Source of the DNA: Balamuthia mandrillaris
Lineage: Eukaryota
Direction: 5' to 3'
NCBI GenBank assembly: GCA_031835245.2
Contig: JAVKOQ020000014.1
Span: 124,001-188,000, forward strand
Length of the DNA: 64,000 nt
The notes under the pieces are model-generated. The model had not been told where the DNA came from. It saw only the letters and a list, made by a program, of their open reading frames with translations, and did no database searches. Positions within the stretch are counted from its first letter, which is position 1, and the number at the start of each line of letters is the position of its first letter. This document shows positions 2,516-46,649 of the stretch, piece by piece. The translations under genes were made by a program, and so were the position numbers.

Positions 2516-5500
2516 ATGAAGACCTACAAGTTTAGGGTACCTCGCTCCTCTCCACCCTAGTTTTTCTTCTTTGTGTTATGCTCCATGAGAGCGAAGACAA
2601 CTTTGGCAGGCTCGACCTCGCTCTAATAAAACAACCGAAACCGCGACCCATCACCACCACCACCACTAGGGGGAGTGGAGGGGCAAGAGCGCCGGTGGCT
2701 GTTTGAACCACTCCACGTGGCGCTACAACCCGCAGCTGTTTTTGAGCGTGAAGCAAACCACGCAGCTTGCCTTGAAGCTCATGCAGGAAGGAGAGGAGTT
2801 GTTTCATATTGGGTTTTATGTGGCCAAGAGCGATGGTTGCTTTTTTTTGTTCCTGTTCTCTTTTCTCTTCATCTTTGTCTCGTTTTTATCTTCTATCCTC
2901 TTGCTCTTATTTTCCTCTCTTCTCTCTTCTCTCTTCTCTCTTCTCTCTTCTCTCTTCTCTCTTCTCTCTTCTCTCTTCTCTCTTCTCTCTTCTCTCTTCT
3001 CTCTTCTCTTTCTCTCTTCTCTCTTCTCTCTTCTCTCTTCTCTTCCTCTCTTCTCTCTTCTCTCTTCTCTCTTCTCTCTTCTCTCTTCTCTCTTCTCTCT
3101 TCTCTCTTCTCTCTCTTTCCTCTATTCTGGTCTCTTTTCGATTCTCTCACTTCTCCTGTTGCTAACTCATTGCTTGTCTCGTTTACTATGTTTCTTGTTT
3201 GACCTTTATAGGAAGTGGCCGGCGGCAACTTTCTCTTTCGCGAGACCAGCTTGTAGCTAAGGCTGCATTTGAGGATAGCAAAACAGGTTTCTTTTTCCTC
3301 AATGCTAACACAAAAAACAACAGAGTTATTTTTTAAGCTCACTCATGTTTTTCTTTGAATGCGTTTCAGTTTCGTTGGACCTAACATTGGAGGGGTCAGA
3401 GGTGCCGTATATAGTAATCCCAAGCACTTTCAATCCAGAGAGTGAGTGCAAGTTCACCATGACGTTCACCTCAGAAGGCGTCATTGGACTCGAGCCTCTC
3501 TCTCCGAGTAAAGAATGGAAGCATGTCAGTGTGGAGGTACATACCGTTGTGTTGTTGTTTCATGCCATCTCATAAGCTTTTTGTTGTATTCTAACTTGAT
3601 GCATTTCCTAAATACTAAAAGGGCGAGTGGGCAGGCAAAAGCGCTGGTGGTTGCAAAAACAATCCCACATGTCCCAACAATCCACAATACCTGCTGCAAG
3701 TCACGGAGCCAACCGTGGCACACATGTTGCTTGTACAAAACGATAAAACAGAGTTTGACCACATTGGCTTCTATGTTGCTAAGACCGGTTAATCCCATCT
3801 TCTTTTTGTCCTCTTTAGTGTTGTTATTCTTATTCTCCTTTTCATTCTCTCGTTATCTTTCTTTGCTTCTCTTTCTTTATCATGATTATAGGTAGTCCAA
3901 CCGTAAAGCTGGTGAAAATCAGCACCAGCGACATACTTGGTAAAGCTGAGTTTGCTAGTTGCCGAGAGGGTACACTCATACTCCGCCTTCTCCTTTGCTC
4001 TACTCCTTATGTTCTTGTCATGGCTGACAAAAAAACCTCAATAGCGTACTGGAAGTGCTCACTGACACCAGATAAATTTTACGTGATAGTGCCTTGCACT
4101 TTCGACCCCGGCTACGAAAGTAAGTTTAGGCTGACTGTCTTAAGCGACAATGCCGTTAAGATCAAAAAGTTGCAAGACGCCCAAGGCCTCTCCAAATACG
4201 GAGAATGGACAGCGGGAACAGCGGGAGGCTGCATCAATCATTCCAGTTGGAGGGACAATCCTCAATTCTTCTTGACAGTCAAGAAAGAACTGAGCGCCAC
4301 TATTACCTTGAAGCAACTGGAAGAAAACAAAATGGCATCCATTGGATTCTATATCGCCAAGAGCAACGGTGTGTTTTTGCGTTTTCTATTCCCTTCTTTC
4401 AACAAAACATACCATTTGCTTACTCTCACCTTTTTTCTTCCGGTTTTATTGAAGGGCGGAGGCAATTGGTTCTAACTCCAAGCGACTTGGTGGAAAAAGG
4501 AGCTTTTGAGAAACGCAAGTCCATCTCAGTAGAGGTTTCTCTACAACCGGCCGAGTTTCCCTACGTAATCATTCCTTGCACGTTTTATCCTAACCACGTG
4601 GGCCGCTTTTCTCTCTCAGTGTCTGCCCACACCAACATCGGCCCAACCGATCTCATTTTGAAGGAATGCAAAGACTCTTGGAAGAAAATCAAGGCAGTGG
4701 TACGTTTATTGTGTATTTCGTCCTGCTGTTAACGCTTTGCATTGACTTCTGCTCTTCTTGTTCTTCTTTTTCTTTTCTTCTTCTCCCTCTTCCTCCTCTC
4801 TTTCCCATTTTAAAGGGCAAATGGGAAGGTGATACTGCTGGTGGTTGCAGAAACCATCGAAGTTGGCTCAAGAATCCTCAGTTTGGAGTTCATCTCAAAA
4901 CAACCTGCGAACTGGTGACGATACTATCCCAACCAAACTCTCAAAACAGCATTGGCTTCTATGTCATCCGTAACAAAGGTTAGCAGCGATTCTGCGCAAA
5001 GGGCGATTCATCTTTTTTCTTTGGTTATTCCAATTGTTATGTATGTCTTTTTGTGTTCAATGTCTCATTTTTTTTAAAACAAAATGAACAGAAATGCGCT
5101 CTATGGGTGCCGTCAAGAAAGAAGATATTATCCAGAAGTCAATCTTTCGGAAAGATGAAGAAGGTCTGTTCCTTTTCCCGCCCATTTCAATATAACCACA
5201 AGAGATGCTCTCTCTTTCTGCATCTCTTGAGTCTCTCTCGCTTACCTCATTTCATTCTTATTATTATTATTGGTATCTTTGTATATAACAGTAAACACGG
5301 AAGCATTAATGGACGCAGGCTACTACAACATCATTCCGTGCTTGTTCGAAGCAGGCATGGAGGGCAACTTCGAGTTGATTCTCTATTGCCAAGAGGAGAT
5401 CGAGTTTGAGGCCTTTGACGAGACCTGTAGCATCATTGCTCACAACGACTCTCCTGCTGGCAGCAGTAATCACAGTGGCAAACTCTTCGACTCAAGTTTG

Positions 5501-7162
5501 GTCTCTGGCGGTGGCACGGAGATCGTTCACATGGCCAAAATGCAACTTGCGAAGGAGGTGGAACGGCCGCAGGCCTCCACGGAAGAACCGCCACAATTAA
5601 GTCCCAGAAACACGGTGATAGAGGTAACGGTCGAAGTGAACCACAACAGCAACAGCAACAGCAACAATGCAACTACAAGCCCAAATGGGAGCGACTCCGG
5701 ATCCTCGCTCCACAAAAAAGAGAAAAATGGAAGCGTGGGCAGCGGCTCCGCTCTCACTCTCAAAGTGGAGCCCAAAGAAGAAAAGGAGACGACGACCGGA
5801 AAGAAGAAAAAGAAAAAACAGAAGGAGACGCTCAAACAAAACAAAAAAGAAAAGAAAGCCACGCCCCGAGCGGAGAAGAAGGAAAAGGAGGAGGGAGTTG
5901 GCAAAAAGAAAAAGAAAAAGAAGAAGCAGAAAGAGGAAGGAGCCACCGCCGCCAAAGGCAAAGAAAAGACCAAGAAGAAGATCAAGCGAAAGGCCAGCGG
6001 CGGCAAGACCAGCCCAAAGTCTTCTTCCGCCTCCCAAGACGCTAACAACAGCGGCAGTGTTAGAGCCATTGCTTCCGGAGAGGCCCATCCATGGGCCATC
6101 GACTTTGAGGAACTGGTGTTCCAAGAGAAGATAGGGCAGGGCGGCTTCGGCGTGGTGTACAAAGGAACTTGGAGGGGCACGACCGTCGCCATCAAAAAGC
6201 TGTTGTCGGAGGACATGGATGACCCAAGCGACTACCAAGAGTTTATCAAAGAGATTGAAATTATGAGGTTGGTTCTTTTTTTCTTTTTATAAGTTGTTAT
6301 ATATTATTCTTATTCTTTTTTCTTTTTTCTTATTCTTTTTCTCCAAAACCAAAAACAAAAGCAAACTTCGGCATCCGAATGTGGTACAATTTCTGGGAGC
6401 ATGCTTGCAACCGCCAAACATCTGTATCGTGACGGAGTTTTTGGAGAAGGGGAACCTCGCGGAGGTGCTGAAGCGTGACAAGGACGGCAGCGAGCCGCTT
6501 TCCTGGCATAAAAAGATAAAGATGGCGAGGCAGGCCGCCCAAGGCATGAACTACCTCCATCAATCCAAGCCTAAGATCGTCCATAGGGACCTCAAATCCT
6601 TGAACCTTCTTGTACTTACCTCCTGTTCTTCTTTCTTTCATCTTTCTGTTCTTCATTTTTTATTCTTTTCTTCTCTTTGCTGTTTCTTTGTTCTTTTCTT
6701 TTCCTCCTTTCATTTTCGTTTTGTTCTTCTTTGCTTATTTTTCGTTTTGCTTATTCGTTTCTTTAAACAACAAAGGTGGATGAGAACTTGACAGTAAAAG
6801 TGGCCGACTTTGGACTGTCTAAGCTGACAGTAACAGGCAACACCCTCAACAGCAAAGTAGGCTCGTTGAACTGGTGTGCTCCCGAGATCCTCCTACAGAA
6901 CATGCCCTACACCGACAAGGCGGACATCTACAGCTTCGGCATGGTGCTGTGGGAGCTACTAACGCATGAGGCCCCATTCTACGGGCTTCATCCGCTGCAG
7001 ATAGTGAGGGCCATCGACCAGGGCAAGCTGCCGGACATCCCCAAGACCTGTCCGCCAGACTATGCCAAGCTCATCAGCGATTGTTGGGAGAAGGATCCCA
7101 ACAAGAGGCCTTCCTTCGATGAGATACTCGTTCGTTTGCAAAAGTTGGAAGGCAGTGGATAA
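2516..7162 (+). CDS. Multi-exon protein with four calpain domain-III (C2-like) repeats, a Lys-rich linker and a C-terminal TKL-group protein kinase
   Basis: ATG 2516 (MKTYKFR), intron 2537-2669. Four G(E/K)WxGxxAGGCxN..NPQ motifs occur at ~2670, 3620, 4200 and 4815, each followed by IGFY and YxIIP. Kinase motifs: IGQGGFGVVY, VAIK, HRDLKSLNLL, DFG, APE, DIYSFG, RPSF. Stop at 7162. Confidence 0.85.
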
Positions 7163-19944: not shown

Positions 19945-20643
19945 CTAGTAAAAGGAACCCAGGAAGAGAAACCTCTTTCCAGCGGATATAGGAAGGCCCA
20001 TGTGCTCATGGGAGACACCGCCAGGATAGACTATGGCAGTGCCAGGGCGGGGCTTGCCGGTGGAGTAGTCCCACTTGGGGAAGTAGGTGCCGCCGCCTTG
20101 GTAGTCGTCCGGCTGGCTGAGGGTGACGACCATGGCCACCGTCTCCATGTCGTGGTGCAGCCCCATCTCCTTGATGACCTCCGGCTCGTACTTGAGGACG
20201 TAGGGGCGGTCCATCTTTTGAATGGTGAAGGTCTTCCAGAGGCTTTGCACGAGAGGGCGGATGTGCTTCTCCACGACCTCGTAGTAGACGGCCTCCAGCT
20301 TGGGGTCGATCTGGTGGAGGTGTTGGGTGGTCTCAGGGTCGTCCACCTCCACGAGGCCCTGCGTGTTGACCTGTTCGAAGGTCTCCTCCTCGGTGACCCA
20401 CTTGCCGCAGTGCTCAGCCTCCTCGATGAGCAGCCGGCAGAACTCCTCGGTGAAGAGCTGGAAGTGGTAGATCTGTTCGACGGGCTCGCGGGTCACTTTG
20501 GTGGGGTCCAGCTTTTGTCCTTCCTTGAGGCTGGCCGTGGCCTCCACCAGCGTTGGGTCTATGAACTTGGGGTCGTACTGGAATAGTTCAGGGTGGAGGG
20601 GCTTGTACCCCCCGCTCTCTTCATTTGTGGTGGAAGAAGACAT
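19945..20643 (-). CDS. Stand-alone 2OG-Fe(II) dioxygenase resembling the PLOD lysyl-hydroxylase catalytic domain (copy A)
   Basis: FQLFTEEFC..LIEEAEHCGKW, YVLKY, HHD, DYQGGGTYF, HEHMGLPISAGKR..SF (HxD...H...R..S). Intronless. Confidence 0.85.
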   Translation of the reverse strand: MSSSTTNEESGGYKPLHPELFQYDPKFIDPTLVEATASLKEGQKLDPTKVTREPVEQIYHFQLFTEEFCRLLIEEAEHCGKWVTEEETFEQVNTQGLVEVDDPETTQHLHQIDPKLEAVYYEVVEKHIRPLVQSLWKTFTIQKMDRPYVLKYEPEVIKEMGLHHDMETVAMVVTLSQPDDYQGGGTYFPKWDYSTGKPRPGTAIVYPGGVSHEHMGLPISAGKRFLFLGSFY

Positions 20644-20851: not shown

Positions 20852-21626
20852 ATGGGGGACCACCACTATAAGCCATTGCACGCAGAGCTATTCAGCTACG
20901 ACGACGCGTTTGTGGAGCGCTTCATAGGGGAGGGCGTTCGCCGCGTGCACCAGCTCACGCCCGAGCAGATCAACGAGCTGCCGTGCATCAAGGAGGTGGC
21001 CGAGCAGATCTACTTCTTCCAGCTGTTCACCGAGGAGTTCTGTCGGCTGCTCGTCGAGGAGGCAGAGCACTGCGGCAAGTGGGTCACCAACAAAGAAAAG
21101 ACCAACGAACCACACCCCTTTGTGGAGGGACTCATCGACGTCTGCGAACCGGACACCGTTATTGAGTTTGATGAACTTCCCGGTTCGTCCCCTTTTCTTC
21201 TTCCTTTCCTCCTCCGTCTCTCCCTTTGACTGAAGGTGAGAAAAAACCAAAACAAACCAACAAAAGGTTTGGAAGAAGTGTATGGCTCCGTGATAAAGAA
21301 CCACGTGCAGCCCATAATGGAGGCCAAGTGGGTGACCTTCAAGCTGCAAAAGTGGGACATGCCGGCGGTTCGCAAGTACGAGCCGGACGTTGTCAACTCC
21401 ATGGACCTGCACTACGACCTGGAGACGCTCTCCATGGTGGGCTACCTCAGCAAGGACTTTGTGGGCGGTGGCACCTACTTTCCTCGGTGGAAGCTGTTGG
21501 TGGGCGGACATGAGGACGTGGTGCCCGGCAGTGTGGTGCTCTACCCTGGTGGCATCAGCCATGAGCACAAAGCGCTCCCCATCACCGCTGGCAAACGCTA
21601 CATGCTCTCTAATTCATTCTTACTGA
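20852..21626 (+). CDS. PLOD-like 2OG-Fe(II) dioxygenase (copy B), one intron at ~21183-21266; 3' end ambiguous (21626 with a 1-nt slip, or 21844)
   Basis: Same motifs as copy A: FQLFTEEFC, HYD, GGGTYF, HEHKALPITAGKR. Confidence 0.8.
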
Positions 21627-22045
21627 AGTTCAACAGCTTCTTCCTGCTAAACCTCTATAAGATGTTATGTTTGTCCAGAGGTGCTCATCGAATTAGAGAG
21701 AGACCTCCATGCGGCCAGGAACATGATCCTTCGTCGCATCCGAGCGGCCGCTCTTTTCATGCGGTAGCGCCGTCTGGCCTTGACCTCGGTCTGGTTCCAC
21801 CGGCCGGCCCTGGAGCTCGTCCAGATGGTAGGCATAGACAATAAAAACGGCCTATGTCGTAGCGACCCCAAACCACCGACCTAGGTAGGCGTTGTTGTTG
21901 TTCGAATGCCTGTCTCATGTCTGCAAATATATAAGTGCTACTTCAATAAGCTGCTGCTGCTGCTGCACCTTCACGTTCAGCAGCAGAAAATGAGGGGGCA
22001 AGCCCCACGCCCACTCAATCCTATTTTCAGAAGATCTTTACTCTC

Positions 22046-30420: not shown

Positions 30421-30561
30421 CACATCTGTGTTGTTATCCTTGATATCCTCCTCACCTCACTAACTATTTGATTGTTGTGGTCTCTTCGACTATTACCAAA
30501 GTAAACACAAATAAGTACACACATGTTTTTTTCGTTTTTTTTTAAACTTGTTGCATTGTTG

Positions 30562-33500
30562 TGTGATAAGGCCGGTAGGGGAACAACCTAACGGACACCA
30601 ACTTGATGGGCGTAGGGAAAAGACCTTTAATGAAATGAAAGAAAGAGATATATATACAAGGAGAGATAGGGATAGGTATTATGGGAGAGTGGTATAACAC
30701 TTCCCCCTCCCAGGCCAAAGTCATCTGTGATTGACTGTCAGGCCGATAATCATGATACCGCTCTCCAATATGCCTGGACCAGGTCTGGGGCGTTGATAAC
30801 ATTATGTTCAGGCTCCCAAGAGTTGTGGCGGTTGGAGAAACCTTTCCACTTCAACCTATATTCAAGTCCTCGACTGGTGTAGCGGTGATCTAAAACTTTC
30901 TCAACCTCATATTCGTCATCAGCGAGCTCTCTATCTTTGTCGTTACGCGGGATGAATCGTTTGATGCGGTTGAGGTTTACCACTTTATCCATTTCAGGAC
31001 CAGCAGTATTTCGCACCTTGATTGTCTGCGGAGAACAGATTTCAATAATCTTGTAAGGTCCTCCTTTCCAACTACATTGAAGTTTCCTTGACTCGCCTAC
31101 TGATGTGGCTTTGGAGTGAATGAGAACCAGGTTGCCAACCTTAAACTCATCCTCCGGCTTGCCATGCCGTTTCTCCGTCTTCTTCTTTTGAACATTGTCT
31201 ACTCCGTGGGCTTCTTCTGCAAGTTCATGCTGTGTCTCCTGCAGTTGCCTCACCCACGAATCATCGGACAGATGAGTAGTGTCCACCAAACCGGTACCAT
31301 TGGACTTCCTCCCAAACATCAGCTCGTAAGGGGTAAATCATCATCCTGGCAGCAGCGCATGGTGATAAGAATAAAGTAGCATTGGAAGGTACGCACTCCA
31401 GGCTTGTTGCCTGCCATCCACGAATTTGCGGAGCTGCTCCTTAAGGGTGCGGTTGTATTGTTCAACCATGCTGTTTCCTTGGGGATGCTCTGCCATGGCG
31501 TATTTACGCTTGATGCCCAGAAGAGTCGAAAGCTCATTGTTGAGTTTGTTAATGAACTCTCTTCCTTGATCAGACAGAAGCTCCTTCAGGAGGTCTGTGC
31601 TCACGAAGATCTCAAGTAAGGCCTTTGCCACTTCCTTTGCTTGTTTCGTCTTCAATGGACGAATGTCTGGCCAACACATGAAGGCGTCAATGGTGACCAA
31701 GGCGTATCAGTACCCTTCGGCCGTCAAGGGCAACTCACCGATCAGGTCCATGCAGACCAACTTGCTTGGCTCGTTTGCAATGATGTGACCCAATGGCCCA
31801 TCGGCTTTCTTCCATGGAGCCTTCGCCTCCTGGCATTCCACACAGCCCTTGACCCAATGTTCCACATCTTTGTGAATTCCAGGCCACCAGTACTGCATGA
31901 TGAGGCGGGAGTATATCTTTGTAAGGCCGAAATGCCCACACGTAGGAACATTGTGGAACTGACGAAGTATCTCGTTCCTAAGCTCCTTGGGCATGATTTG
32001 TTGGATGGTAGCTTGTTTGACCTTGGCTTTATCAGGCCAAATCGTGTGTAAAAGATGTCCGTCTTGGAGGAAGCACTGCTCCATGAGCCCAGGCTTTGGC
32101 AGAAGGGTTGACAATGCTCACGATAAGGGCTTTGTACCAACATTCCGGCGGCTGGTCGTCCTGCAAATGGAACTCGAGGGCACGGATAAAGGTCAACGGG
32201 TTGGAAATCTTCGGATCGTCCGGGTCAAACTTGGGAAGATCTCGGGGGAAAGATTGGTTCTTTGCAGAAGGGGCCGAAGAAGCAGATGAAGAAGCGGTGT
32301 TGCAAGGCAAAGGCAGAGGCCAACGCTAACGAGGAAGCCGAGAAAGAGGCGGACTTGGGCTTCATGGGTGTTGAAAAGATCAGGTCATCCTCCGCACAAT
32401 CTTTTTGGAATAGAGTCCGTCGCAACGGCGGATTAGATGTCACAGAGGGGGGAACAACAGAAGAAGTAGGGGCGGGAGGGCGGGAAAAAAGAGGGAACTT
32501 CCCGTTCTCCAGGTCATCAATAGCTTTCGAAAGCCAGTCGATCTTGTTACTGAAGAAGACTGCTTTCTTCTGGTGCTCTTCTTCTTCTTCCAGGGTCGAT
32601 GCCATGGCGGCTTTTTCAAGCTCCTCCGCAGCGCAAACATGGGCGTTCTCAAGGGCGGCTCGAAGGCGTTCCAAACGCTCCTCGAAGGCGGTCGGGGAAA
32701 TCGTCTCGGATTTCTTGTTCTTGGCGTCCATCACGTCTGAGGGGAAATCGCACGAATAATGGTTCCGGCCGTCAAAAAAAATGTTAGAAAGGGCGAATAA
32801 CACGAACGGACGGGGCCAAAACGTATTATTCAAGAGGGAACAAAGGAACAAAGAGTGTCAGGAGAGAAAGGTGTGGTGTGAACTAAACAAAACTAACTAA
32901 CTAAAAGAAAGAGAGAAGGAAGCAACGGAATAAAAGGAAGAAGCCTAGCGATGTGGCAACAGGCGATTGGTCCACGTCAAGGATGTCGACAGGAAGAAAA
33001 GGAAAGGAAAGGGGCAACAGAACTAATATGTTGAGAGTAATTCTCAACATCACTCCCTCTTCCGTTAAAGTGAAGCATAGGGGTCATGGTCCAGCGAGTC
33101 TTCTACCAGTTCATTGATAGCACGGCAGTACTCGTAATAGCTGTCAACGTCATCACACTGCAAATAAGAAAGAGTAGCAGAGGGACCAGGAGGGGGGCCA
33201 GATCGGATAGCAGTGGCAGGAGGGCAATCTTGCATCACCTTGACCTTGTTCTGCATGGGACTAATTCCGTCGCTAGACACCATGTGTCCAAGGTACTCCA
33301 TCATCTCCTTTACAAAGGCGCATTTGTTGACCTTCACGTAGAGTCGATACTCACAGAGACGCTCAAAGACCTTGTGTAAGTGAACGAGGTGGTCCTCAAA
33401 TGTCTTGGAAAAAACGATGAGGTCGTTGATGTGACACCAAGAAAACTTCTACTTGAATTCACCAAAGATCTCATCCATTCCTTGTTGGAACATAGCTGGA

Positions 33501-36152
33501 GCATTGGTAGGTCCGAAGGGCATAACCATAGGCTCAAACTGGCCGGATTTTGTAATGAAGGCACACATATTTGCAGTACACTCCTCCATTAGGAAGTGCC
33601 AATAACCACACGCTAGGTCAAACTTGGACCGGAACTTGGAGCCGTGGAGGCAATTCAGTCCGTCCTCAACATTTGGCATAGGATAGAAGTCCTTCACTGT
33701 CATTTGTTTAGCTCTCTGTAATCGATACAGAAACGTGGTTTTCCGTCCTTCTTGATGACAATGATTACTGGGTGTGCCCATTCGCTGACAGATTTGCGAA
33801 TGACGCCCATGAGTAGCATGTCATTCGTGGCAGCGTTGATGGTCTCCTGAACCTTGGCGCTGACCTTGTGAGGCTTCACACGGATGGGGGTATAATCCGT
33901 TAGGACTATCTTGTGGGGAGGAAGTTTAACACTTCCCAGCTCAGGAAGCTTGTAGCAGAAGACGTCCTTGAATTCAAGGGCCAGCTCTAGAAGCCATGCT
34001 TTCTGCCCAATATCCAGGTCCGTGTCGTTCATAAGCTCTCTCAGGCTCGTCATTACCTCTTCCTCGGTGGGAAGCTCCACTGGGTAGATAACGTCCACAA
34101 TGTCTTGGGTCTCCTTTGTGACTGAGGTGCACACTCAGTTGTCATCAGAGTCGCAAGACGAACCTTCCACAGGTTTGCTCTCAGCGAGAAGCAACCAGTG
34201 TCATCGTGCTTCCAAAATGTCCCAGCTGATGAGAAAATCATGAGGCATCGGATCATCCTCTGCCAAGACTGCAACAGTTGCCTTGACGTTCTCATGAGTA
34301 GGCGGAAACAAAGAGTGACGTAACCCTTCGGCTTCACTTCATGGCCAGTGGCACTTCTCCACATATCTCTGTTATGTAGGCTACTCATTCTTACTTCTTC
34401 AGGCAGAAGTGTTTCTCGAACAAAGCTATTGGTGGCACAGGAGTCCAGTGCGGCCTCAATTGTCCTTCCTCCGGAGATCTTCAATGTCATCCTCAGCAGA
34501 CAACGCGTGTTCTTGATGACAATATTCATCGATCCTGTCCTTCCACCAGCACTGTCCTTCTGGGCCAGCGCCTGGCTTTGGCTTCCAGACTTGCCCTTTG
34601 TGTCCCGCAAAGCACCGCCAACAGTGTCCTTCTTCTTGCTTTGGTTGACACGTTTCTTTTCTGAGCACTCTCTTGTCCAGTGCTCTCTCGACTTGCAGTT
34701 GTAGCAAAAGGGTCGCTTTTTCCTCCCGTCATTGCCTGAACTGCTGTCGTTATTGTTCTTCTCCCGCCTTGAGCTCTTTGACTGATGGTCTAAGCTCCTT
34801 TTTGCATGTTTGCGTCCTTCCCAGTCTCTAGCAAGGTTCAGGGCATCAGCCATATTAGCAATGTCTTCCCACTGAAGGAATTTCTCCTTCAGGTCCGGAA
34901 CAGCACCTGTGATGAACTTCTCCAAGACCTGAGTCTTGCTGAAATCCGTGAGAAAAGCCTCTCGCAGCGCTGTACGCACTTGCAAGTTCCAGGCGTCTAC
35001 AGACTCATCAATGTTCATCTGGAGGTTACCAAGCTTCATGATCTTAGCAGTCGCTTGGTCACGATGCTGGAAGCAGTTGAGGAGCTGTGTTTTCACCTCC
35101 ATGGGGGTTAGTAGGACTCCACCTTTTGTTTGTTCTTGCTTGAGGAAGCAGCAAATGACGTCAGCGTTGTCACAAAGTTGTCCTTCAAAGTGAAGGATAT
35201 AGTCCTGATGACTCCAGCCAGCAGCAGTCGCATAGTGGTTGAATGAGGTCAAAAAGATGTTTGGGTCCTTGTTTGGCTTGCCATGGAAAGTTGGCAGCGT
35301 TTCTGTGGTAAGCAGACTCTGCATTGGCTGAATATCACCCAAGCTGTCACCAGTGTTGTGTTTGGTGGTACATCGTCATAAATCTTGACGGCGTGCCGTA
35401 AGGTTGAGTGCAGGTTTTCTCTTCTCCTTCTCCTTTTCTTCCTCCTCTTCGCTTGATGATGAAGAACTGGACCCAGAGCCAAGACCATCATCTTTATCCG
35501 CAAGTTTGGCCTTAAGAAGGTTTTGCAGTTGAGAGATTGCATCATTAAGAGCTGCTAAAGCTACATCATGACTATCATTCACTCGTTTGATGTCGTTCAA
35601 GAGCTCATCTGCAAAGGTTTCCAATTTTGCATCGATATGGTGGATATGGTCAGACAAAGAAGAAGCATCGCTAGTCTGCTTGACCAAGAGCCTGTCGTGG
35701 TCCGCTTGGCTTGCGCGAAGCTCAGAGAGAGCCTGGTCAATGGCATCTAGTCTGTCCGTGGGAAGGGTTGTAGAAGTAGTAGTAGGGGAAGGAGTGCCAG
35801 AAGCTGGAGGGATAGCACCACTGGAAGGTGGACCGCTCTGCGCACCAGAAGAAGGAGTTGTACCAGACTGCGGGGAAGTTCCTGACATTTTACATCACCG
35901 AACACTGCTACGGAAGCGCTCCAAGTTTCCTCCAGAAAACCCTGAGTATCCAAAAATAGGTTAAACACCTGAAAACCGAACTTACCAAGAAAAAAGTAAG
36001 CTGATGTCGCCAAGTGTGATAAGGCCGGTAGGGAAACAACCTAATGGACACCAACTCAATGGGCATAGGGAAAAGACTTTTAATGAAATAAAAGAAAGAG
36101 ATATATATACAAGGAGAGATAGGGATAGGTATTATAGGAGAGTGGTATAACA
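30562..36152 (-). mobile_element. Decayed chromodomain-bearing Ty3/Gypsy LTR retrotransposon (family A)
   Basis: 138-bp LTRs at 36015-36152 and 30562-30699 (8 differences by my count, all transitions). PBS-like TGGCGACATC lies 2 nt inside the 5' LTR and PPT GGAGGGGGAAG precedes the 3' LTR. Gag CYNCKSREHWTREC, protease LDSCA, RT RFCIDYRELN and MPFGPTNAP, integrase HHCC plus SDQGREF..HPQGN, chromodomain YEVEKVLDHR..KWKG..NSWEP. Many stops; RNase H is missing. Confidence 0.95.
32090..33210 (-). mobile_element. Nested family-B fragment: ORF tail + PPT + single LTR (32782-33049) + gag 5' part
   Basis: The LTR matches 25602-25869. It is preceded by GGAAAGAGGGAGTGA and followed by T8 and a gag-like ORF (..DLPKFDPDD..LTFIRALEFHL). 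Confidence 0.8.
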
Positions 36153-38613: not shown

Positions 38614-41367
38614 TCACCAATAATCACCACAAGAGCAATTGCCATCAGGGGAAAACTGATGGAAACGATTGGCATCTCTCACTAAAATCTCTCGCCGTGT
38701 CACCTTGGCAATGAACTTGGTGGCTGTGTGACAGTCCCCACAGACTCTCAAGTTCTTAATAATGCACAATGGCTCGCCTGGTGGAGTAGAAAGCAGTCCA
38801 AATGCAATGGCCAGCTTCTCACTATGAGCGCACAGCTCCACTTCCTTTTGCTCATCAGGCACGTCATGCAGCACCCAGTCTGTGTCTGGTTTATAACCCG
38901 CAGCCTTCATTTGCTGGCTCAGCCTATCCAGCTCCTGATAAATCTCTACGCTGCGTGGGTGGCTGCAGTCCTTCACCACAAAGCTGTGCACTTGCCCATC
39001 CACTGTTATCCAGCTTTTTCCAGGCTCTTTCTTCACCTTGCGTTCCTTCATCTCGTTTCGCACCTTTTCCACATCTGCCCATTGTCCTGCAGCAGCAAAG
39101 ATATTGGACAGCACCACAAAGGGTGCTGCACCTTGTTGCCCCAATTTGATGGCCTGCTCTGCTGCTCGTTCTGCTCGCTTCACGTCTTTTGCTCCTCTGC
39201 ATGCCCCCAGCAACGTCATCCAGGTCACCGAATTAGGTGGCACATCCATGCTATTAATTAGTGCCTCCGCCTCGTCCAACCTTCTTGCCCTTCCCAGTAA
39301 GTCAACTACACATGTGTAATGATCCACCGTTGGCTGGATCCCATGCTTCTCTTTCATGTCAGCAAAGCAAGCCATGCCCTCTTCAATGAGCCCTGCATGG
39401 CTGCATGCATTGAGTACGTTGGTGAAGGTGATCACATCTGGTGCTACACCTTGTTGTCTCATAGCATGAAATGTGGCAAGTGCCTCCTTGCCTTGTCCTG
39501 ACAGGCCATAAGCAGCAATCATTGCATTCCAAGAGATTATATTACGTTCGTTCATCTCCTGGAACACAATGTATGCATCATCCACCTTCCCGCACTTGCC
39601 ATACATGTTGATTAAGGCATTTGACAGAAGAACATCAGGGAGGAAACCACCGCAGAGGAGCTGAGAGTGCACAAACTTGCCCATCTTCCAGTCCGCCGTG
39701 CTAGCACATGCTTTGAGTATACTTCCATAAGTGAAGGAGTCTGGTGGCACACCAGCCTGCTGCATTTGTTGGAACAGCTCAAGAGCTTCCTTCCCATTAC
39801 CATTCTGGACTTCTTCTGTGATCATTGAGTTCCATGCCACCGTATTGTATTCGTTCATCCCTTGGAAGACAGCACGTGCCTCCTCTATCTTCCCACACTT
39901 GCCATACATTCCTATGAGAGAGGATGACAAAAGGGGGTCGGGTAGAAAGTGGTGAGAGAGAAGTTGTGTATGGATGCGCTTGCCCGTCTCCAAATCCTCT
40001 CCAATTGCACATGCTTTGAGAACAGAGGCGTAGGTAAATGAGTTTGGTAGCACGCCTGCCTGTTGCATCTGTTGGTAGAGTTCGAGGGCTTCCCACCAGC
40101 ATCCACACTGTACTTCCTCTGCAATCATTGAGTTCCACATCGCTACATCACGTTTCTTCATCCCCTGGAAAACTGCACGTGCCTCCTCCATCTTCCCACA
40201 CCTGGCATACATGCTTATGAGGGAGGTTGATAGAACAACATCAGGAAAGAAGCCACCATGAAGAAGCTGGGTATGAATACGCTTGCCCGCCTCCAAGTCC
40301 TCTGCAATTGTGCATGCTTTAAGGACAATAGCATAGGTGAAGGAGTCCGGTGGCACGCCAGCCTGTTGCATCCTTTGAAATAGCTCAAGGGCCTCTTTCC
40401 CATGTTCGTGCTGGGTTTCCTCCCCAATCATTGCATTCCACGTCACTACATTGCGTTCCTTCATCCCTTGGAACACTGCACGTGCATCATTCATCTTTCC
40501 ACACTTTCCATACAGGCTTATGAGGGCAGTTGATAGGACAACGTCTGGTAGGAAGCCGTGATCGAGGAGCTGAGCATGGACGCGCTTGCCCATCTCCAAG
40601 TCCTCTACATTTGCGCATGCTTTGAGGGCAATAGCATAGGTGAAGGCGTCTGGTGGCACACCTGCTTGTGGCATCCGTTGAAACAGCTCAAGGACCTCCT
40701 TGTGGTGTCCGCACTGTGAGTAGGCTTGCATCAAGGCGTTCCATGTCCACACATTGCGCTCCTCAGTTTGCTCAAACACTGCAAGGGCCAAGTCTATCCT
40801 ACCGCACAGGCCATAGGTGCTGATGAGAGAAGTGGAGAGGTGGGGAGAAAGCGGGCGAGAAGAGAGGGAGAGGAGGTGGGAATGCACACGCTGACTCTCC
40901 TTCAACGTTCTTTCCCTCTTGCACCGCTTCAACAGCTCCATGTAGACTCTCTCTTTTGCTCTCACTCCAACCTTTTCCATCTCCCCCAACGTGGCGGCCA
41001 GTGCCCGTCCCTGAAGTCGGCCCTCTCCTCGTGCCAGGGCTTGCAGCTGCCGGGTGTAGTCTCTCTTCGTCTTGCTTCCCCCCGTGTTCATGCCAGCTGC
41101 TCTGCCCTGTCTGTGCGGCTCGTCCGCCCTCTTCCAGTTGCTCACTGTACGCTCCCCTGTGACGATGATGAACGAAAACGGTTGAAGAAAACGTCCCAAA
41201 AAAAAAACAACCGTGAAAGAGAGCGCACCGCTACAGGAGAAAGAGGAGGAGGGGTGGTAGGTGCACGTGGAGGGAAGGCAAAAGGAAGTGCACAACGGCG
41301 AGTGCAACCCACGCGGCAGCTGCAAAACCTTCTCCATTGCTCCGGGCACACTTCTGCGGGGCCACAT
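38614..41367 (-). CDS. PLS-class PPR protein with E1, E2 and complete DYW cytidine-deaminase domain (C-to-U RNA editing factor type); probable in-frame intron 41157-41228
   Basis: 17 L/S/P motifs ending P2-L2-S2, E motifs, PG box (PGKSWI), HSEKLAIAFG, KNLRVCGDCH and C-terminal CSCGDYW. The N-terminus is Ser/Arg-rich and presequence-like. Confidence 0.95.
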   Translation of the reverse strand: MWPRRSVPGAMEKVLQLPRGLHSPLCTSFCLPSTCTYHPSSSFSCSGALSFTVVFFLGRFLQPFSFIIVTGERTVSNWKRADEPHRQGRAAGMNTGGSKTKRDYTRQLQALARGEGRLQGRALAATLGEMEKVGVRAKERVYMELLKRCKRERTLKESQRVHSHLLSLSSRPLSPHLSTSLISTYGLCGRIDLALAVFEQTEERNVWTWNALMQAYSQCGHHKEVLELFQRMPQAGVPPDAFTYAIALKACANVEDLEMGKRVHAQLLDHGFLPDVVLSTALISLYGKCGKMNDARAVFQGMKERNVVTWNAMIGEETQHEHGKEALELFQRMQQAGVPPDSFTYAIVLKACTIAEDLEAGKRIHTQLLHGGFFPDVVLSTSLISMYARCGKMEEARAVFQGMKKRDVAMWNSMIAEEVQCGCWWEALELYQQMQQAGVLPNSFTYASVLKACAIGEDLETGKRIHTQLLSHHFLPDPLLSSSLIGMYGKCGKIEEARAVFQGMNEYNTVAWNSMITEEVQNGNGKEALELFQQMQQAGVPPDSFTYGSILKACASTADWKMGKFVHSQLLCGGFLPDVLLSNALINMYGKCGKVDDAYIVFQEMNERNIISWNAMIAAYGLSGQGKEALATFHAMRQQGVAPDVITFTNVLNACSHAGLIEEGMACFADMKEKHGIQPTVDHYTCVVDLLGRARRLDEAEALINSMDVPPNSVTWMTLLGACRGAKDVKRAERAAEQAIKLGQQGAAPFVVLSNIFAAAGQWADVEKVRNEMKERKVKKEPGKSWITVDGQVHSFVVKDCSHPRSVEIYQELDRLSQQMKAAGYKPDTDWVLHDVPDEQKEVELCAHSEKLAIAFGLLSTPPGEPLCIIKNLRVCGDCHTATKFIAKVTRREILVRDANRFHQFSPDGNCSCGDYW

Positions 41368-41695: not shown

Positions 41696-42514
41696 TTAGA
41701 ACTTGGGGGCTGTGGTAGCCCAAGTATCAGCGTCATGAAAAAAGTTCCATTCTCCATCATAAGAACCAATTACTGCAGGAACAGGTTGTTGGATGGCCTC
41801 TAAACGCCAGAAGGAAGACTTGTACCAAGCCGCAGTTGGTTTGAGGCCTAGATTGGCCCAAAAAGGGAGCCGGTCCTCCCAGCCTGGGTCCTCATACTCG
41901 GTGAAATTACGCACTATATCGGTCATGCTGAAGCCCATCCCTGACACAAGCTTCTGCACTCCAAACCACTTTTGTTTATTGCATTCCAATGTTGTCAATC
42001 CAAAGTAGATTACACTTCCTGCAATTGGTTGACGCCAAAACAAACGAAGCGAGTCAGTTAGCGCGACAATAAAAATAACTGCACAAAAAAATAAGAAAGG
42101 AAAGTAAATACCGGGTCCTTTCAAAGAGGCCACACCGCGAGAAAGAAAGACTTTACAGCCTTCCACAGTTTCAACAGGATCGCTGGCAAACACATCGAAA
42201 CTCCTCTGGAATGACTGAGGAAGGGCAAATCTAGCATCATAGAGATGAGCCTCCAACCGAAGATTGTAACGCTTTGCTGCAGCGTTGAGGAAATCAATGA
42301 GACGTTGGTCAGCTTCCACGCATACTACCCTCTCGGGCAGTCCTGTAAGAGCACATGCCAAGGACAGAAGGTCATCGTCCCCTAATATAAATATTCTTTT
42401 GCCAAGCAGGTCGCCCCGTGCATGCATAAAACCTACTCTGTGTAATGCGTGTTGTGGGCTCATATACCACTATATCATGGTTGTTAGACCCTTTCGCTCT
42501 TATGGCCAGACTTT

Positions 42515-42556
<42 letters not shown>

Positions 42557-42565
42557 GGAGGGAGG

Positions 42566-42607
<42 letters not shown>

Positions 42608-43340
42608 ACCTGGTCAAACTCTTCTTTCGCACTCGGGCGAGTAGCAGCAATTTCATTGAATAGGTGAAGTAAATTGAAGTTGGAGGGACAGTGGTAACCC
42701 CTGGTTTCGCACTGGCAACAGGGTTGCGTCGATGACATTCCCACTATATCGTTTGTTGCCGCTGTATCAGTGTTAAAGTAACGTTGCAGCGCCTTATCCG
42801 CCTTCTCTGTAAGTTTTAGCTGTTGTTGTCACAAAACATGAGAACCACGTCTTCTTCACAAAAAATAAGAGAGAGCAGAGAGCAGAGAGCAGAGAGCAGA
42901 GAGCAGAGAGCAGAGAGCAGAGAGGGAGAACGCACTACGCCTTCTTCAAGGACAGCCCAGCCCTCCTGTTGCAGGCGTTGAAGCTGATCATAAAAGTCAC
43001 GCAAGGAAGCGTCCTGCAAGTTAAGCAAGGCGCAAGGGTCCATTTTCCCTTCCTTAGCCTTTGTTTTCAGTGTATATAGCAGCCTCAGCAAGTCTGCCGC
43101 TGGCACAGTTGCTCCCTCCTCTTGCCTCGGTGGGTGGAAGTCACTTGGTGGTTCTTGCTCTGCTGCTTCCTTCATTTTTTGAGGGAGTGCCTCAAATGAA
43201 CACCCACCAGCAGCAGCAGTCATTTGCTGGTGGCCAGCAGCTGACAACCGGCAGCAGGAGGGCTCTCCTCTAGGCGCTACCAAAGCTGTGGCCGGGCTAG
43301 TATCCGTTCTCGTCGCAGTGCAACTATCAGCCAGCAACAT
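41696..43340 (-). CDS. bpsA: BpsA-like branched-chain polyamine synthase (N4-bis(aminopropyl)spermidine synthase, DUF43), paralogue 1; exons 43340-42936, 42819-42610, 42469-42112, 42018-41696 (431 aa)
   Basis: CCQCETRG, RPSAKEEFDQ, MHARGDLLGKRIFILGDDDLLS, LTGLPERV, FDVFASDPVET, FLSRGVASLKGPG, YFGLT, KW..VQK, TDIVRNFTEY and WYKS are collinear with archaeal BpsA. The spliced frame is open. Confidence 0.9.
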
Positions 43341-43796
43341 TTTTTCGCTTGTGTCTTTCTTCGTCTTCTTCTTCTTCTTCTTCGGGCAGTGAAGAAAAAG
43401 GGTTTAGCAGGCAAACAACAATCAGAAAACCAGAAAATAAAATTGGGAGTTGTGGTGGGTGGGCCGCCTTCAGGAAAGAAGAAGGGGGAGCGGAACGTAC
43501 GCTCTCCTTTTTTTGACCGGATATCCTTTTAAAGTATATATCTTAGATTATGATCGATCTATATTACATTAGCATACCTAATATACGCATGGCAGATGAA
43601 TTGCGGGCAGCTCATTGGTTGCCATGATGCCGCAAGTTACACTTGTCCGCAAAAAATCGCAAATGAGGGGGAAAGGAAGAAGGGCGTTGGCAAGCGGTGG
43701 TGCTCTTCCCTAACAACAAAGCTTCTTCTGTTTCTTCTTCTTCTCCTTCTTCTTCGATTGTTGTTCAAAAGCGAACACGAACAGCAGCAACAAGGA

Positions 43797-45060
43797 ATGA
43801 AAAGCCTGGATTGGAAGACAAGCTTGTCAGAGGAGGTACGCTCCCGCCATATGAGGCTAGTGGCTGAGGCGGCCTCCCGCAGAGGGCTGAAGGAAGAGCA
43901 GTTTCATGTGGCACCCATTGTCAGCTGGGACAACACCATCTACGTGGTGCGGACGGAAAAGCACAAGGGAGGGGTCATGGTCGCGCGGTTCCCCACGCGG
44001 CCTCCTTCCGCTCGTCCTCCGCAACATAGCCCTGCAACGCAAGCCGCCATTGCACGGGTCTTACAACGACATGGTACCCCTCCTTCCCCTCGTATTTTTG
44101 TTTCTTTGCTGATCAACGGTGGATGCAACAGGAGTGGTAGGGCCAACTCCTCTTGAGGTAAACCTGGAAGAAGACTTTTTATTGGAGACTTATGTTGAAG
44201 GGAGCAACTTTGGTGATGTATTCGAGGAGCTGGCAGCTACAACAACGAACGGCTCAGAGAGCAAAGAAGAGCGGGAAGCGTACCAAAAAGAGCAACGAGA
44301 AGCGGTGTTTGTGCAGCTAGGAGGAGTGCTACGGCGGTTACACAGCATAAAGACGGAGGGCTATGGGCTGGTGAGCTACGACGAGTCCGCCTACAACCAG
44401 CTGAGGGGAATCTCTTCCTGTTGGCTCGACTTTTGCGAGCAGCACTTCATGGGAGGGTTGAGGGCACTGGAGGAGGCCGCCGCTCTTCCCCCCGACCTTC
44501 TGAAAGAGCTCTCTCGGCTCTACCACCGCTATCAGCCCTATCTGGCCGCCTTTGACAAGCCTTGCCTTGTTCATGCCGATCTCAATGATGACAACATTCG
44601 GGTGATTCTACAACCGTCATCACAACAGCAGCCACAACTACCACAACAACTGCCAGCAGAAGCAAAAGCACCCCAACAACAACAACAACAACAACAACGG
44701 AACAAACAGGAAATTCCCAAGAATGGAGGAGGAACAGAGCTAAAGATAAGCGGTCTCTTGGACTTTTGCGATTCCCTCTCGGGAGACCCTCTCTACGACT
44801 TTGGGTCTTTGCTGGAGGATGAAGGTCCCTCCGTGATGGGCTGGGTGGAGCAAGGCTACGGCGAATGGAGCCAGCAACAAAAGGAACTAATCTTCTTCTA
44901 CGCTATCTTCATAACAGTCTACTACATGACGGAGGGAGGCGTTCGTTACAAACGCCTGCCCAAGTACACCCAAAAGTTGCGCCTCTTTTTGTCGCGTTTG
45001 CTGCGCAACGACGTGGACCTCTGCTCTGCTTCTGGTGTTGACCACCTGTCTGCTTCGTGA
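43797..45060 (+). CDS. APH/choline-kinase-fold phosphotransferase; intron 44074-44131 (401 aa)
   Basis: VARFP, LLETYVEG, LGGVLRRLHSI..GYG, LVHADLNDDNI (Brenner motif) and GLLDFCDSLSGDPLYDF. Confidence 0.88.
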
Positions 45061-45253: not shown

Positions 45254-46649
45254 ATGGAAAATACCAAACAAGTCACTGAGACTGGAGGAGAGGCACTGGC
45301 GCTGCACCTCCTGACCAAGTTGCGAGAAAAGGGAGAGCTCTCGCCGTGGAAGCTGCTCTGCCTCCAGGACAAGACCCTTCAAGAGTTTTACGAAGCCGTG
45401 GAAAGCCTTAAACAGCGAGGTCTTATCGAGCTCACTCCCGAAGCCAAAGTACGTCAACCTTTTTTGAGGGTTTTATGCCATTTTGTGGTGTGTGGTGTGT
45501 TGAGGAGGGAGGCATGGGTGTGTGGTGTTGCGTGTCTTTTCGTTATGCGCCGAGAAGCGAGGTTGCCGCTCACCACAAAGCTGCAACCCACCTACCTCCG
45601 CCGCCACTCCCACAAAAAAAAAAATAATAATATTCTGCACAGCGGCTGAGGTTGACCAAGGAAGGAAAGGACCATTTGGCGCAAGTGGCGGGAGAGAACC
45701 CATCGCTCTTTGACTTCAAGTGCGGCAAGTGTGAGGGCAAAGGCTACACTGTGGCCTCCGATGAAGCCTTCCTTGCCAGGTACAAGAAGCTGTTGGAGAC
45801 ACGCCCTCTCCCTACCGAGCAGTATGACCAGGTTGGTAGAACTTAAGGACCACGCGAACACAAGAAAAACCCTGGCTTTTCATATTGGTGTCCTACAAAA
45901 GACTGACCAACCAACCAAACAAACGACCAAACCAACAGACGTCGATAACAGCAGAGGACGCGGTGATAAGGGTAGGCTTTTTCCATGAACGAGGAGACCT
46001 GCTGAACAAGGACTTGTTGATGATAGGCGACTTTGACTGCCTGTCGATAGTGGCGGCATTGACAGGACTGCCAAGGAGGGTGTTGGTGTTGGATGTGGAC
46101 GACCGACTCATCGCCTACATTAACCAAGTGGCGGAGGAGACGGGCACCTCCCACATCTTAAAGGCTGAAAAGTTCGATGTAAGGCAGCCATTGCCGGAGA
46201 GCTACAGAGGCTCTTTTGACGTGTTCTCTAGTGACCCGGTGGAGACTCTGGAAGGAATCAAGCTCTACCTGTCTCGTGGAGTGAGCGGGCTGCGTAACTC
46301 CCTCAGCAGCTGTGCCTACATTGGGCTGACCACACTGGAAGCCTCTCGCAAGAAGTGGTATGACATCCAGAAGCTGCTCTTTGACATGAACCTGGTGGTT
46401 ACCGACATTCGCCGCAACTTCAACGAGTATCCTGATACCGGCCTGGAGGAGATGCACATCATATACGAGAAGTTGGGCTGTGTGCCCGATTGCGTGTGGT
46501 ACTGGGCTGCCCTTTTGAGGGTGGAGTGCGTTGGCGTGCCTTCTCCTCTCATCACTGGCGCCTACGACGATCAGCAAGGACCTGACATCTACCTTGATGA
46601 CGAAGCCTGGGCCACCCCTATCCTTCCTTCCTCCTCCTCTTCTTCCTAA
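45254..46649 (+). CDS. bpsA: BpsA-like paralogue 2 with GDFD in place of GDDD; exons 45254-45448, 45643-45831, 45939-46649 (364 aa)
   Basis: CGKCEGKG, RPLPTEQYDQ, HERGDLLNKDLLMIGDFD, LTGLPRRVLVLDVDDRL, FDVRQPLP, FDVFSSDPVET, YIGLTTLEASRKKWYDIQK and VVTDIRRNFNEY. Confidence 0.9.

Follow-up and report, generated by a model that had tools for sequence, protein, structure and literature searches.

A conserved GDFD subfamily of BpsA-like proteins in Balamuthia mandrillaris, other amoebae and bacteria, with probably changed polyamine chemistry

We analysed a window of 64,000 nucleotides from the amoeba Balamuthia mandrillaris (the whole stretch of DNA considered here) that contains two genes of the BpsA family, one of which (paralogue 2) encodes Phe at the position of Asp159 of the Thermococcus enzyme. 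The resulting GDFD motif is beyond chance or local accident, and the Phe marks a conserved subfamily. Judged from its sequence and relatives, paralogue 2 probably works as an enzyme on its own, with changed chemistry; that it is a SAM-dependent polyamine N-methyltransferase, with aminopropyl transfer lost, is a plausible identification that we hold at slightly below even confidence. BpsA is N4-bis(aminopropyl)spermidine synthase (EC 2.5.1.128) of T. kodakarensis (TK1691, PDB 5xnc; hereafter Tk-BpsA) and T. thermophilus (PDB 6j27), and the bpsA gene is confined to thermophilic prokaryotes according to PMC12175538 and part of PMC12979288.

The two paralogues and their active sites

The spliced product of paralogue 2 is letter-for-letter identical to the B. 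mandrillaris protein KAL6076605.1 (P0197), which NCBI names N(4)-bis(aminopropyl)spermidine synthase; the frame is intact and the introns are GT–AG (Table 1). It matches PF01861 (BpsA_C) with 218 bits against a Pfam cut-off of 27, and no other Pfam family. Reading the sequence confirmed the motif codons that an earlier note on this DNA had given for both paralogues, with GGC GAC TTT GAC (G-D-F-D) in paralogue 2. That note had also reasoned that at least two base changes separate an Asp codon (GAT or GAC) from TTT, making a miscall unlikely; this was right, and a miscall is discounted because a second NCBI sequence (P0001), one residue different from paralogue 2, likewise has GDFD. Transcription of paralogue 2 is probable, given transcript-derived orthologues in EukProt. 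An HMMER alignment to 5xnc placed the Phe on Asp159 and bore out the proposed register (5xnc chain numbers minus 20 correspond to G157–D160, D225, E259, Y290 and Y316 of PMC12979288, in part). Paralogue 2 shares with BpsA the PF01861 domain, the whole fold, the DQ and DP-x-E motifs, E259, Y290, Y316 and probably the C-terminal acids, yet lacks the defining GDDD motif with Asp159; it further differs in its Ser at Tyr129, in being an intron-bearing gene of an amoeba and not of a thermophilic prokaryote, and in its gene context of lysyl-hydroxylase-like oxygenases and a kinase.

Paralogue 1, whose model is 96–97% identical to the NCBI proteins P0121 and P0222, has the GDDD motif with the Asp159 equivalent, as expected of the BpsA enzyme. 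Both BpsA genes contain spliceosomal introns, and the acceptor-side residues D225, E259, Y290 and Y316 are found in both products. The C-terminal stretch reads D-I-Y-L-D-D-E in paralogue 2 and N-F-F-H-D-A-D in paralogue 1, in a register against E339, D342, D343, E344 and E345 of Tk-BpsA drawn through 2qm3, the Tk tail lying outside the alignment. Luapelamoeba hula also has both subfamilies, and its identity to Balamuthia is 70.3% for the GDFD copy as against 53.2% for the GDDD copy; by protein identity in this single species pair, GDFD is thus the better conserved of the two paralogues. The earlier statement that the protein is well conserved outside the motif holds for the active-site set, but the paralogues are only 41% identical overall. 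Paralogue 1 and the APH kinase gene diverge from an interval of approximately 450–570 bases (43340–43797), a possible shared promoter.

In a residue survey of 21 eukaryotic and 12 bacterial GDFD proteins, D126, Q127, G157, D158, D160, D206, D225, E228, E259, Y290, Y316 and the final C-terminal D and E were invariant (33/33), and D181 was present in 32 of the 33; D181 and D206 are numbered here, like D179 and R183, by the 5xnc alignment, which places these four residues one higher than the survey output (D178, D180, R182 and D205). A pseudoenzyme would be expected to have a relaxed or degenerate active site relative to paralogue 1, whereas here the catalytic residues besides Asp159 are invariant. 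Position 129 (Ser in paralogue 2, Tyr in Tk-BpsA) co-varies with the Phe at 159: an aromatic residue occupies it in 0 of 32 Phe proteins (3 gaps) versus 223 of 287 Asp proteins, counts that depend on kinship. The predicted structure of paralogue 2 (pLDDT 88.6) matched 5xnc with a Z score of 36.8 (VIA) and an rmsd of 2.6 over 339 residues (Foldseek E 2e-29, TM about 0.8). The closest folds outside BpsA were METTL5 (Z 20.8, rmsd 2.4, 193 aligned) and PH1948 (Z 19.9), a predicted likeness to methyltransferases that applies to any BpsA.

In BpsA, Asp159 and Asp160 hold the amine of the aminopropyl arm of dcSAM and position the aminopropyl group; both are essential and the GDDD motif is indispensable, while activation of the acceptor amine is the task of D225, E259, Y290 and Y316 (PMC12979288, in part). 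The aminopropyl group itself is carried by the C-terminal acids and not by Asp159 (same source, in part). The earlier note, which gave the central Asp as the proposed catalytic residue, was right about its importance, but the role now assigned to it is to orient the aminopropyl group, with the C-terminal acids as carriers.

Table 1. Features in the window and, where a locus is named, in bacterial GDFD loci.
Feature	Positions	Strand	Details
PLOD/lysyl-hydroxylase-like 2-oxoglutarate oxygenase B	19945..20643	-	single exon; PF25238; HxD...H triad
PLOD-like oxygenase A	20852..21844	+	exons 20852-21182, 21267-21844; spliced model = P0412
Broken LTR retroelement	30545-35900	-	zinc knuckle, reverse transcriptase, integrase and chromodomain pieces
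Intron-less 917-aa protein	38614-41367	-	101-residue repeats, DYW end
Paralogue 1, BpsA-family GDDD subfamily (DQW[YF]M type)	41696..43340	-	PF01861, 201 bits
Paralogue 1 exons	42936-43340, 42610-42819, 42112-42469, 41696-42018	-	alternative start 43223
GDDD motif of paralogue 1	42371..42382	-	GGG GAC GAT GAC
APH/choline-kinase-family phosphotransferase	43797..45060	+	inferred exons 43797-44073, 44132-45060; between the BpsA genes
Paralogue 2, BpsA-family GDFD subfamily	45254..46649	+	364 aa, 3 exons
Paralogue 2 exons	45254-45448, 45643-45831, 45939-46649	+	spliced model = NCBI protein P0197
Thr-Ser after invariant DQ, paralogue 2	45939..45944	+	Ser at Tyr129 of Tk-BpsA
GDFD motif of paralogue 2	46026..46037	+	Phe160 = Asp159 of T. 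kodakarensis BpsA
Degenerate SpeE, locus L001	5160-5948		candidate pseudoenzyme partner
Degenerate SpeE, locus L003	281-1207		candidate pseudoenzyme partner
Degenerate SpeE, locus L004	3-638		candidate pseudoenzyme partner

Spread and phylogeny of the GDFD subfamily

Conservation of the Phe in orthologues, which the earlier note had marked for checking, was clear: among the best 27 matches of paralogue 2 (59–100% identity), all 24 that cover the motif have GDFD, and the other three are fragments without it. Besides Balamuthia, the named eukaryotic members are L. hula and Amoeba proteus, so that the named members span Discosea (Balamuthia) and Tubulinea (A. proteus); most of the others among these best matches come from contigs of about 1 kb and are probably eukaryotic transcripts, given their positions in the tree. 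The one variant at the Phe site among the listed cluster members is Tyr (P0209 and P0218), and an aromatic residue is thus retained. The best ten matches of paralogue 1, with L. hula and Dracoamoeba jomungandri as the named ones, all combine GDDD with the DQW[YF]M signature.

GDFD is likewise the motif of a bacterial clade. The 196 cluster representatives from the searches with the two paralogues comprise 156 with GDDD, 34 with GDFD, 2 with GDAD and 4 without the region. At 50% clustering, 132 of the 150 best family representatives retain Asp159, although the profile was biased towards GDFD. The earlier note had named a common occurrence of GDFD in active prokaryotic BpsA as evidence against its reading; this is partly seen, in that GDFD occurs in a distinct bacterial clade of putatively active proteins.

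In a tree of 50 selected rows, from which the two motif columns had been taken out, the sampled GDFD proteins formed two clades, one bacterial (support 100/100) and one eukaryotic (99/98), beside a eukaryotic GDDD clade (100/99) and a third, apparently eukaryotic BpsA group with GDDD or GDAD (Stenamoeba stenopodia and relatives; 100/100). Bacterial GDFD proteins together with all eukaryotic rows split from the other prokaryotic GDDD proteins at 94/90. A single origin of the Phe was neither rejected nor established (AU p 0.133). Common to both GDFD clades are F159, a small residue at 129, Y238, G291 and A351 (the last three in P0001 numbering), and the alignment contains no compensating acid common to them. 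In the third group (P0028, P0047, P0256, P0220 and P0250), GDAD represents a second kind of Asp159 loss. One further protein, P0251 (1081 aa), has an N-terminal hydrophobic stretch and two tandem BpsA domains, both with GDDD.

Gene context in bacteria and in the window

In locus L001, from a Holophagales MAG, the gene order is SpeE, flavin amine oxidase, degenerate SpeE, SpeE, a fusion of SpeD (SAM decarboxylase) with a 2-oxoglutarate oxygenase, BpsA(GDFD), a second oxygenase, DUF5916 and an APH kinase. All four bacterial GDFD loci examined (L001, L003, L004 and L005) contain a lysyl-hydroxylase-like oxygenase, an APH kinase and at least two SpeE genes, and SpeD is present in three of the four; oxygenase and kinase queries had no matches in the other BpsA-like loci (L006–L019, L021 and L030–L035), many of which are short. 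Some of these components are also fused, GDFD to APH in P0252 and SpeD to GDFD in P0169, whose SpeD part has an intact ESH self-cleavage motif. In P0416, a SpeD part without the ESH motif is fused to an oxygenase, and in L005 a hydrophobic, membrane-protein-like frame (4752–5990, +) lies between the GDFD-BpsA gene and the oxygenase.

No GDDD gene or second BpsA gene was found in any of the four loci, three of which (those besides L001) are contigs of 3.9–7.3 kb. The Holophagales genome G001, in which six of six tested marker genes were found (ArgRS as a partial match), has a single BpsA both by the family HMM and by the paralogue-1 query. A second GDFD gene was absent among 301 genomes of its class and 401 of its phylum, the seven other matches examined from these genomes (L021 and L030–L035) having GDDD, and no locus was found on viral contigs. 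In the L001, L003 and L004 clusters, a degenerate SpeE directly precedes an intact one: in each pair, one copy has no D-x-x-D following strand 4, which we take to be an acidic functional motif, and the degenerate copy of L003 also lacks the Asp of GGGD. Given this loss, a degenerate partner in these clusters is more likely to be that SpeE than BpsA.

The window contains both oxygenase paralogues and an APH kinase, which are gene kinds of the bacterial GDFD clusters, and a bacterial origin by transfer is the simplest reading of the shared genes. Oxygenases A and B, whose nearest solved relatives are lysyl hydroxylase domains (for B, E 9e-22 to the LH3 hydroxylase domain), stand head-to-head 208 bases apart with a possible common promoter, and such a pair also occurs in EukProt records. 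Oxygenase A is 53–57% identical to the SpeD-fused oxygenase of L001, L003 and L004, and B is 51% identical to the stand-alone oxygenase of L001; the best-scoring partners were the SpeD-fused copies for A (3/3) and the stand-alone copies for B (2/2, one narrowly). The kinase matches PF01636 (E 1.8e-13), has the HxDxxxxN and DF motifs and has Atlas features at 0.97 to bacterial APH clusters; its likeness to the kinases of the bacterial GDFD clusters is weak (hhalign probability 58%), short of orthology. Identification of the kinase as MtnK was set aside on the grounds of its motif and of the lack of an NCBIfam match. Neither SpeE nor SpeD was found in the window by tblastn with bacterial queries. 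Approximately 20 kb, holding the LTR retroelement and the repeat-containing DYW protein (by visual inspection, a putative PPR-DYW RNA-editing factor), separate the oxygenase pair from the BpsA genes. The oxygenase A model extends approximately 70 codons (21600–21844, +) beyond the end of eight homologues (seven ending in NSFY and one in NALY), and at that end point there is a stop codon in a frame shifted by one base; the extension may stem from an assembly error of a single base, which P0412 would share.

Predicted chemistry and its meaning

A working enzyme is favoured over a dead partner because the GDFD subfamily is conserved and its bacterial genes are accompanied by those for a hydroxylase and a kinase. 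The strict constraint on the nucleoside-binding and amine-activating residues, together with bacterial use apparently without a GDDD partner, argues for changed chemistry. Taking Tk-BpsA as the model, an enzyme that has lost Asp159 would be expected to transfer no aminopropyl group. The Phe would remove the anchor of the dcSAM aminopropyl amine, such that the arm could no longer be presented; the coupled change of Tyr129 to Ser or Ala may repack the pocket for intact SAM, and Asp225 of the DP motif, Glu259, Tyr290 and Tyr316 would still position and activate the acceptor amine (predicted to be N4 of spermidine, of thermospermine or of the branched product of paralogue 1). Paralogue 2 would thus add a methyl group to a polyamine nitrogen, within a predicted tailoring pathway of hydroxylation and phosphorylation.

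There is precedent for such a switch in spermidine synthase, in which D103 is an acid that would repel the carboxylate of SAM; D103I alone inactivates the enzyme and yields low methyltransferase activity, which Q79T and V106T on top of it raised (PMC3725402, in part). EcSMT of coca, a spermidine-synthase homologue, methylates N4 of spermidine (PMC9894180, in part), the same atom that BpsA alkylates. Like Solanaceae PMT and Erythroxylum coca EcSMT/EcSPMT, paralogue 2 would be an aminopropyltransferase turned methyltransferase and, as in PMT, the Asp that binds the dcSAM amine has given way to a hydrophobic residue (Asp159 to Phe, the structural equivalence to D103 being assumed). Unlike these enzymes, which are built on the spermidine-synthase PF01564 scaffold, it belongs to PF01861 and would be at most a functional analogue. 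N-methylation is suggested by this precedent together with the co-variation of Phe and position 129, the METTL5 and PH1948 folds and the oxygenase–kinase–SpeE context. Against it stand the origin of the precedent in another enzyme family with D103 only assumed to equal Asp159, the retention of Asp160, Gln127 and, probably, the C-terminal acidic carriers (all aminopropyl-transfer residues of Tk-BpsA), and the SpeD genes and SpeD–GDFD fusion, which fit use of dcSAM, although the SpeE genes also need dcSAM and SpeD is elsewhere fused to an oxygenase. The distance of approximately 20 kb between the oxygenase pair and the BpsA genes and the weak likeness of the amoebal kinase to the bacterial ones likewise count against this reading.

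Read the other way, these features point to a dcSAM aminopropyltransferase with a changed acceptor or product (for example, a single transfer, or a hydroxylated or phosphorylated acceptor), in which Asp160 and the C-terminal acids would suffice and the Phe would reshape the pocket. This explanation, which we regard as possible but doubtful, is consistent with SpeD in three of four bacterial loci, with the intact ESH motif of the P0169 fusion, with the retained Q127, D158 and D160 and probably retained C-terminal acids, and with the assignment of the carrier role to those acids and not to Asp159 (PMC12979288, in part). It conflicts with the indispensability of GDDD and the essential role of Asp159 given in the same source (in part), with the prevalence of Asp among the best 150 family representatives (132) and with the lack of a compensating acid common to the GDFD clades.

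Catalysis might instead be lost altogether, with paralogue 2 activating or steering paralogue 1 in a heteromer or serving as a non-catalytic polyamine-binding scaffold. The trypanosomatid AdoMetDC prozyme and deoxyhypusine synthase heteromers are such polyamine-enzyme paralogue pairs, in which one member lacks a catalytic residue. The Balamuthia pair resembles them in that paralogue 2 has lost an essential Asp, its gene neighbours that of paralogue 1 in the window and Balamuthia and L. hula each have both subfamilies; the degenerate SpeE beside an intact one in bacterial clusters also indicates that dead-partner pairs may exist in the pathway. Unlike prozymes, however, paralogue 2 keeps its other catalytic residues, all of them invariant in the subfamily; it is the copy that diverges more slowly, only Phe or Tyr occurs at the site within the clade, and in bacteria it is partnerless in the four loci seen and in G001 with its single BpsA. 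We therefore consider an inactive partner unlikely: of the two possibilities that the earlier note had inferred, the evidence agrees with a second step of different specificity and disfavours the active/inactive heteromer.

It is very unlikely that paralogue 2 is a SAM-dependent aminocarboxypropyl transferase resembling nicotianamine synthase, in which loss of the Asp would admit the SAM carboxylate and the whole arm would be transferred. Removal of an acid that repels this carboxylate, the role of D103 in spermidine synthase (PMC3725402, in part), and the probably retained ping-pong carriers would fit, but a bulky Phe at the site of the arm's amine would probably hinder a larger arm; no nicotianamine-synthase-like chain was among the best 50 fold matches of the paralogue 2 model. 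A decaying duplicate or a sequence error can be dismissed: GDFD recurs in two NCBI entries for B. mandrillaris and is shared with other amoebae and bacteria, the frame is intact with GT–AG introns, and the strong conservation already refutes this reading.

Our literature search, which covered largely open-access papers, found no paper on a eukaryotic BpsA, the GDFD form or the GDFD cluster. According to part of a 2026 review (PMC12979288), higher organisms have no known pathway to branched polyamines. Balamuthia has a validated thermospermine synthase (PMC12803844, a source that names the amoeba and, in the part available, does not mention BpsA), and this enzyme could supply substrate. We tentatively propose, as one possibility, that Amoebozoa acquired a bacterial polyamine-tailoring pathway, the product of which would be an undescribed branched polyamine bearing N-methyl, hydroxyl and phosphate groups. 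The branching would be the work of GDDD-BpsA, as the first eukaryotic branched-polyamine synthase. GDFD-BpsA would be the first methyltransferase known in its family and might convert N4 to a capping quaternary ammonium. Hydroxylation of the chain would fall to the two lysyl-hydroxylase-like oxygenases and phosphorylation of the hydroxyl to the APH kinase. The same four chemistries (aminopropylation, N-methylation, delta-hydroxylation and O-phosphorylation) modify an amine-bearing chain in the silaffin lysines of diatoms (PMC4557024, in part). This likeness to the predicted pathway is an analogy alone: silaffins are modified proteins, whereas no protein substrate or link to silica was found here.

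An amoeba with two BpsA subfamilies, one of them catalytically swapped, near tailoring genes common to bacterial operons points to an undescribed polyamine-derived metabolite in amoebae and some bacteria. If N-methylation by the GDFD subfamily is true, it may represent an independent switch from aminopropyl to methyl transfer, outside the spermidine synthase family.
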